Part shown: positions 39,387-39,845 of the stretch, piece after piece
How positions within the stretch are numbered: position 1 is the first letter of the stretch
Layout of the letters: each line of letters opens with the position of its first letter
Source: Shigella phage vB_SsoM_JK08
Sequence record: LR877332
DNA length: 64,000 bases
Direction: 5' to 3' (one strand)
The notes under the pieces: model-generated
What the model was told of the DNA's origin: nothing
The model's input: only the letters and a program-made list of their open reading frames with translations
Databases searched by the model: none
Made by a program: the position numbers and the translations under genes

Positions 39387-39845
39387 TTATTTTAAATCAT
39401 CTGCCCAATCGAGTTTAAGAGGCTCTTTGTATTCACGGTCAAGTACAACCGGAATTTGTACATCACCGCTAAATGATAAGGGCCCAACATTATAAGACAA
39501 TGTTATATGCGGTGTGTAATCATCAAAATCGTGTGTAGCACCTAGTGCCCGCGCATACATGTGTCGACAGCGCAGATATTCAGAATCTAGCACAAGTACA
39601 AGAGTCGATCCATCTTGTGTTTTCCACACTTCTAAATGTCCAGAAGAAGCTACTTCAAAACTTCCACTCGATGGAACATATGGAACATTTACTCTCGAAT
39701 AACATATGGTCGAATGAATTTTTTCTCTAGGAACTGGATTAGGAACACGTAAAGAGCGCTGGAGTTCTTCCAGCGCGTCAAGTGTTAATTCTGAAAACTT
39801 AGCTGCTACATAAAGACCCGTTGAAAAGTCTTTAAATTCCATCAT
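39387..39845 (-). CDS. 57B: 2H phosphodiesterase (LigT-like), Acb1/57B-like
   Basis: 152-aa ORF with two H-x-T-x motifs (HSTI, HITL) separated by about 80 aa; position immediately upstream of 57A. Confidence 0.7.

Follow-up and report, generated by a model that had tools for sequence, protein, structure and literature searches.

A gene 57B (acb1) orthologue in a T4-like phage encodes a protein identical to T4 Acb1

The 152-codon open reading frame that lies beside gene 57A is, with a probability that we put at about 0.97, acb1 (T4 gene 57B) of a T4-like phage, encoding a metal-independent 2H phosphodiesterase that acts against CBASS. The window, by which we mean the whole stretch of 64,000 nucleotides that was analysed, is, judged by its sequence, Tequatrovirus DNA from a close relative of T4 but not from T4 itself. 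The evidence obtained here covers identity to a sequence already tested, membership of the Acb1 family, the fold, the conserved motifs and the synteny; for the substrates, chemistry and anti-CBASS phenotype of acb1 we rely on published work with the T4 protein, whose sequence is the same. The reading frame was an exact match in the ORF list, on the minus strand, at the position where the original prediction had placed a 152-aa product. The coordinates of acb1 and of the other features are collected in Table 1.

To establish identity, the translated product was compared by BLASTP with the T4 57B protein, taken both from X03016.1 and from NC_000866 (NP_049750.1), and 152 of 152 residues were identical. 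The original prediction had proposed an Acb1-like protein and had named alignment to T4 Acb1 as a way to check it, and the identity found by this alignment is stronger than what was claimed. NP_049750.1 is the accession named Acb1 by Hobbs et al., who traced the 3'3'-cGAMP-degrading activity of T4 to this protein by activity-guided fractionation (Hobbs et al., 2022, Nature; PMC9117128). A tblastn search of the phage collection with the acb1 product gave a match in 1471 records, and the T4 sequence X03016.1, annotated as 'put. 57B protein', was 100% identical. Family searches gave the same answer: the product scored 202.7 bits (E 2.7e-60) with Pfam PF23474 (anti-CBASS protein Acb1), for which the cutoff is 27, residues 9-150 being aligned on positions 1-144 of the 144-position profile, and it also matched PHROG 755 (E 5e-68) and, in a sequence search of the PDB, 7T26 and 7T27, the Acb1 of Erwinia phage FBB1 (E 4e-62, 65-68% identity). 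At the nucleotide level, a 2.2-kb segment around acb1 was matched at 100% identity by Tequatrovirus phages, namely Yersinia phage PYps35T and Escherichia phages a15 and 232Ecol030PP, and the record of 232Ecol030PP labels the orthologue 'anti-CBASS protein Acb1'. Roughly 650 Tequatrovirus records have a match to the segment. One cluster representative, 99% identical to the product, is assigned to Enterococcus faecalis in NCBI; it lies on a 3-kb contig and is probably phage contamination of an assembly.

Table 1. Positions in the window of acb1, its motifs, neighbouring genes and candidate expression signals, and of two more distant loci.
Feature	Position	Strand	Basis and remarks
acb1 (T4 gene 57B orthologue) CDS	39387..39845	minus	ORF list; ATG start, 152 aa + stop
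First catalytic motif, H44-S-T46-I (HxT), in KIHSTICY	39705..39716	minus	Translation
Second catalytic motif, H113-I-T115-L (HxT), in TPHITLSY	39498..39509	minus	Translation
C-terminal lid, residues 145-152 (LDWADDLK), including stacking W147	39390..39413	minus	Sequence
57A (tail-fibre assembly helper)	39842..40072	minus	Pfam PF17594 GP57, E 2.7e-50; directly upstream of acb1 in transcription
Gene 1 (dNMP kinase), first of the 1-57A-57B block	40072..40797	minus	Pfam PF21448 DNMK, E 3.6e-106
ATGA, 57A stop overlapping acb1 start	39842..39845	minus	Sequence ...GAAGAATGATGGAA...; T4 arranged alike
TATAAATA, T4 late-promoter-type box within gene 1	40428..40435	minus	Exact match; position equivalent to 'pot. 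-10 region (PL1)' of T4 X03016
Putative middle-promoter-like site, ATGCTTC ... TATAAT, upstream of gene 1	40823..40847	minus	Position equivalent to 'put. -35/-10 region (PM1)' of T4 X03016
Early-promoter-like site (TTTACA-17-TACTAT with TG) just past acb1 stop	39345..39373	minus	Consensus scan; identical to T4 intergenic 'PE2'
ip gene, 85 aa	39056..39313	minus	PHROG internal head/virion protein family match
ip gene, 77-81 aa	38746..38979/38991	minus	PHROG internal head/virion protein family; start probably at inner MKTYQEFIAE
Acb2 (T4 Vs.4) homologue, 88 aa	28998..29264	minus	Pfam PF24729 (Acb2/Tad1 hairpin domain), E 2.3e-20
tRNA cluster, 10 genes (Arg, Asn, Tyr, Met(CAT), Thr, Ser, Pro, Gly, Leu, Gln)	36889..37716	minus

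The fold of the product was modelled with AlphaFold on an alignment of 47 homologues, and a single-sequence run (pLDDT 37.8) was discarded. The alignment-based model had a pLDDT of 89.5 and a pTM of 0.83; residues 1-6 and 147-152 were the only ones of low confidence. When this model was compared with the PDB by Foldseek, the best match was 7T26 (E 5e-20, rmsd 0.9 Å, TM 0.87/0.96, the value of 0.96 being that on the target), with 7T27 second, and these were followed by the 2H phosphodiesterase of Burkholderia phage BCSR5 (9Q2Y/9Q2G) and then by Thermus TT0787, E. coli LigT and other 2H enzymes. The model supports a compact 2H phosphoesterase fold for the Acb1 product, and its PDB matches back the LigT-like 2H relationship that had been proposed from the motifs.

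Both of the H-x-T-x motifs from which that relationship was proposed, KIHSTICY and TPHITLSY, were read in the translation, and they contain H44, T46, H113 and T115, the residues named catalytic in T4 Acb1 (PMC9117128). These four residues and E141 were invariant across the 47 homologues, at identities down to ∼35%, and the tetrad aligned with residues of the FBB1 crystal structure. The literature assigns base stacking to Y12, W74, F107 and W147, and adenine recognition to E141 (PMC9117128), and all five were found at the expected positions of the translation, Y12 being invariant and W147 kept in at least 90% of the 47 homologues. The model superposed on 7T26 with the HxT/HxT tetrad present, so a two-histidine active site was found on structural modelling, and the Acb1 interpretation therefore stands. 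Residues 145-152 have been described as a lid (PMC9117128), and T4 Acb1 deleted for these residues no longer activated Panoptes-induced cell death, from which the authors infer that catalysis requires the lid (bioRxiv 10.1101/2025.08.21.671373). In our model, the lid included a short helix (residues 145-150), with pLDDT below 50 at residues 147-152; this low confidence would be consistent with a flexible lid, and lid closure is predicted.

From what has been published on the identical T4 protein, the enzyme would act as follows. A cyclic di- or trinucleotide would sit in the U-shaped pocket of Acb1, with its bases stacked by Y12, W74, F107 and W147 and adenine N6 read by E141, and the C-terminal lid would shut over the ligand. 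The adenosine would be rotated, allowing its 2'-OH to attack the 3'-5' phosphodiester, while the tetrad of H44, T46, H113 and T115 would provide metal-independent acid-base catalysis. The 2',3'-cyclic phosphate intermediate would then be hydrolysed to a linear 3'-phosphate product, which would be GpAp in the case of 3'3'-cGAMP. Since the signal would be destroyed, CBASS effectors would stay inactive, and abortive infection would be avoided. T4 Acb1 was without activity on cGG, on cA4, or on the 2'-5' bond of 3'2'-cGAMP, and its H44A/H113A mutant was inactive (PMC9117128). The original prediction had presented this as a known anti-defence function rather than a novel one, which agrees with the work on the identical protein (Hobbs et al., 2022; PMC9117128); the acb1 finding is correct and already known.

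Comparison with the T4 locus showed the same protein (152/152), in the same place after 57A and with the same ATGA overlap. The loci differ in that 10 synonymous substitutions separate the two acb1 coding DNAs and 57A is 4 aa shorter here, and the surroundings also differ, with ipI in T4 as against two ip genes here, and another tRNA set, without segB, in this phage. FBB1 Acb1 (7T26, apo; 7T27, with 3'3'-cGAMP) shares the Pfam family, the 2H fold, the tetrad positions and the C-terminal lid with the acb1 product, but at 65-68% identity, and W74 and F107 of this phage align with F and Y of FBB1. A more distant comparison is offered by 2H PDE-9 of Burkholderia phage BCSR5 (9Q2G/9Q2Y), another viral 2H phosphodiesterase, able to break down 3'3'-cGAMP and placed in the structural group of T4 Acb1 (bioRxiv 10.1101/2025.08.21.671373), but which is ∼17-18% identical to the acb1 product in a structure-based alignment and has an N-terminal lid, whereas the lid of Acb1 is C-terminal. 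BCSR5 2H PDE-9 cleaves 2'3'-c-di-AMP poorly and does not trigger Panoptes, whereas T4 Acb1 cleaves 2'3'-c-di-AMP too and, when over-expressed, triggers this decoy-signal system (bioRxiv 10.1101/2025.08.21.671373). Panoptes defence was unchanged by deletion of acb1 from T4. E. coli LigT and Thermus TT0787 have two HxT motifs and a 2H fold, as does the acb1 product, but here the likeness is at the fold level only (TM ∼0.5, 10-17% identity). Cellular 2H phosphoesterases have other substrates, namely RNA ends.

The resemblance of LigT and Thermus TT0787 to the acb1 product (E ∼2e-4, TM ∼0.5) can also be read to mean that this protein is primarily an RNA-end enzyme, either a LigT-type 2'-5' RNA ligase or a 2',3'-cyclic phosphodiesterase acting on RNA or tRNA, and that cleavage of cyclic oligonucleotides is secondary. 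The annotation of PHROG 755 is 'RNA ligase', orthologues are named 'RNA ligase' or 'RNA 2',3'-cyclic phosphodiesterase' in RefSeq T4 and in many phage records, and there is a phage tRNA cluster near acb1. However, the match to the LigT and 2'-5' RNA ligase family, Pfam PF13563 (2_5_RNA_ligase2), was below threshold, at 13 bits where 27 are required (E 0.11) and over residues 81-123 only, whereas the Acb1 family scored 202.7 bits, and the pocket seen in the crystal structure of FBB1 Acb1 (65-68% identity) fits cyclic di- and trinucleotides. Published genetics point in the same direction: T4 deleted for acb1 grows normally without CBASS and shows a >300-fold defect on CBASS hosts (PMC9117128), and in a T4 transposon library 57B/acb1 was non-essential on E. 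coli K-12, while insertions and read counts dropped on a CBASS-expressing host (bioRxiv 10.1101/2025.11.20.689424). RNA-ligation activity of Acb1 is not reported in the literature cited here. Given a Pfam score under the threshold and the genetic results in the literature, we reject the 'RNA ligase' label and regard a primary role on RNA as very improbable. The label is an older homology-based name, which mirrors the distant 2H/LigT relationship and not experimental evidence.

It is less probable still, to a degree that we consider negligible, that the reading frame is a decayed or inactive copy of the gene, or a chance ORF that has kept the motifs. When the window was shuffled by mononucleotide 20 times, 0 ATG-initiated ORFs of at least 152 aa were obtained, as against 51 in the real sequence, which argues against a chance frame of such length. 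A decayed copy fits poorly with a frame that is intact and of full length, with a product identical to the active T4 protein, and with conservation of the gene in more than 1400 phage records. The coding sequence differs from that of T4 at 10 nucleotides, which affect 9 codons, and all 10 of these changes are synonymous. Divergence that is synonymous only indicates purifying selection and an expressed protein, and together with the protein identity it excludes a pseudogene or a chance ORF. The sequence itself contains nothing that would speak against the Acb1 identity.

Shorter ORFs that overlap acb1 were also considered. The candidates for an alternative or overlapping gene were three ORFs on the opposite strand, of 61 aa (39545..39730), 47 aa (39559..39702) and 38 aa (39636..39752), and two that read the acb1 strand in a different frame, of 32 aa (39392..39490) and 30 aa (39689..39781). 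Each was unsupported. The 10 differences from T4 are all synonymous in the acb1 frame.

The order 1-57A-57B is the same as in T4 (NC_000866), and both neighbours, 57A and gene 1, were recognized by Pfam, in keeping with the T4 gene 57B position that had been predicted. The prediction had also put the ORF immediately upstream of 57A, of which the adjacency held and the direction did not: these minus-strand genes are read from 1 to 57A to 57B, so 57B is downstream of 57A in transcription, and 'upstream' is true for lower window coordinates only. A position of acb1 after 1 and 57A and before the internal-protein locus is typical of the Tevenvirinae, but is not family-defining. The 57A protein has 76 aa here vs 80 aa in T4; 12 nt are missing in frame close to its acidic C-terminus (ADEAKDEE to ADEE), and it also carries V6I and R47H.

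To look for expression signals, the region from 38600 to 41000 was scanned for sigma-70 promoters, giving 11 sites compared with 8.6 ± 3.5 in the shuffled background, and for intrinsic terminators, giving 1 site compared with 1.2; neither count was above background. Similarly, TATAAATA was not enriched over the whole window (13 occurrences vs 11 expected). Since the generic scans were not above background, promoters were assigned here by their equivalence in position to promoters annotated as putative in T4; scan sites were taken up only at places where T4 has an annotated feature, and of the TATAAATA copies only the one equivalent to PL1 was kept. By this comparison, the TATAAATA box within gene 1 is probably a late promoter from which 57A and acb1 would be read. 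Sites equivalent to PM1 and PL1 would fit the onset of cGAMP-degrading activity, which appears ∼15 min into T4 infection (PMC9117128). We infer joint transcription of acb1, 57A and gene 1, driven by middle and late promoters; the ATGA overlap suggests that translation of acb1 is coupled to that of 57A.

On the other side of acb1, the early-promoter-like site just past the stop codon is the border at which the acb1 unit ends and the internal-protein genes begin. This site is part of a block of ∼45-70 nt, made up of an early promoter and a stem-loop, which is present in three copies (38703..38773, 39001..39071 and 39332..39402). The block holds TTTCACAAAGTTGTTTACATA, a short stem-loop and GTGATACTATTACC, and is promoter-like (TTTACA-17-TACTAT). 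The three genes downstream of acb1, namely both ip genes and a trna.4 homologue (38502..38687), each have one copy in front of them, and the copy at 39332..39402 runs into the last acb1 codons. The single ipI of T4 is replaced here by two different small genes (38746..39313, minus strand), which match phrog_3499 and phrog_8111 with E ∼1e-50. The products of both open with MKT(F/Y)(K/Q)EF..., resembling the N-terminus of T4 IpI, and acb1 and the 85-aa ip gene both finish with ...DLK-stop.

The repeat block looks like a recombination cassette for exchanging internal-protein genes. Because the repeats flank interchangeable ip genes, acb1 and the ip genes might together serve as an anti-defence island that is driven by recombination and would have new counter-defence cargo swapped in beside acb1, but we consider this idea improbable. 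Polymorphism of the ip locus among T-even phages has already been described, and only an explicit link to acb1 would be new.

Elsewhere in the window there is a homologue of Acb2 (T4 Vs.4), so that the phage has both known T4 anti-CBASS proteins. Acb2 has the same target as Acb1, the cyclic oligonucleotides of CBASS, but the two are unrelated in sequence and mechanism, Acb2 being described as a sponge that sequesters the signals and not as an enzyme (PMC10312549). With Acb1 and the Acb2 homologue in one window, resistance to many CBASS systems is predicted. The Acb2 homologue adjoins regB (28199..28660).

For the phage, these results mean that it has the canonical cyclic-oligonucleotide-degrading counter-defence, in the form of a protein identical to an enzyme that has been studied both biochemically and genetically. 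According to the recent work on T4 Acb1, over-expressed Acb1 may bring sensitivity to decoy-signal systems such as Panoptes. The identification of acb1 raises no new question, and its use lies in host-range prediction and in annotation, many orthologous records still reading 'RNA ligase' or 'hypothetical protein'. Labels of the orthologue differ by record, and include 'RNA ligase' (RefSeq T4, PHROG 755), 'hypothetical protein', 'RNA ligase/cyclic nucleotide phosphodiesterase' and 'anti-CBASS protein Acb1'.

Further observations were made in other parts of the window. A 155-aa ORF (26848..27315, minus strand) gives a match to the Macro domain (PF01661, E 2.9e-6), and its product is possibly ADP-ribose-binding or -removing. 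The tRNA set of T4 numbers 8 and includes Ile, and Asn and Tyr are extra in this phage; the tRNA gene with the CAT anticodon may be the counterpart of the T4 Ile gene, as ARAGORN names tRNAs by anticodon. In T4, the homing endonuclease gene segB lies between tRNA-Arg and the other tRNAs, and among the tRNA genes here there is none.
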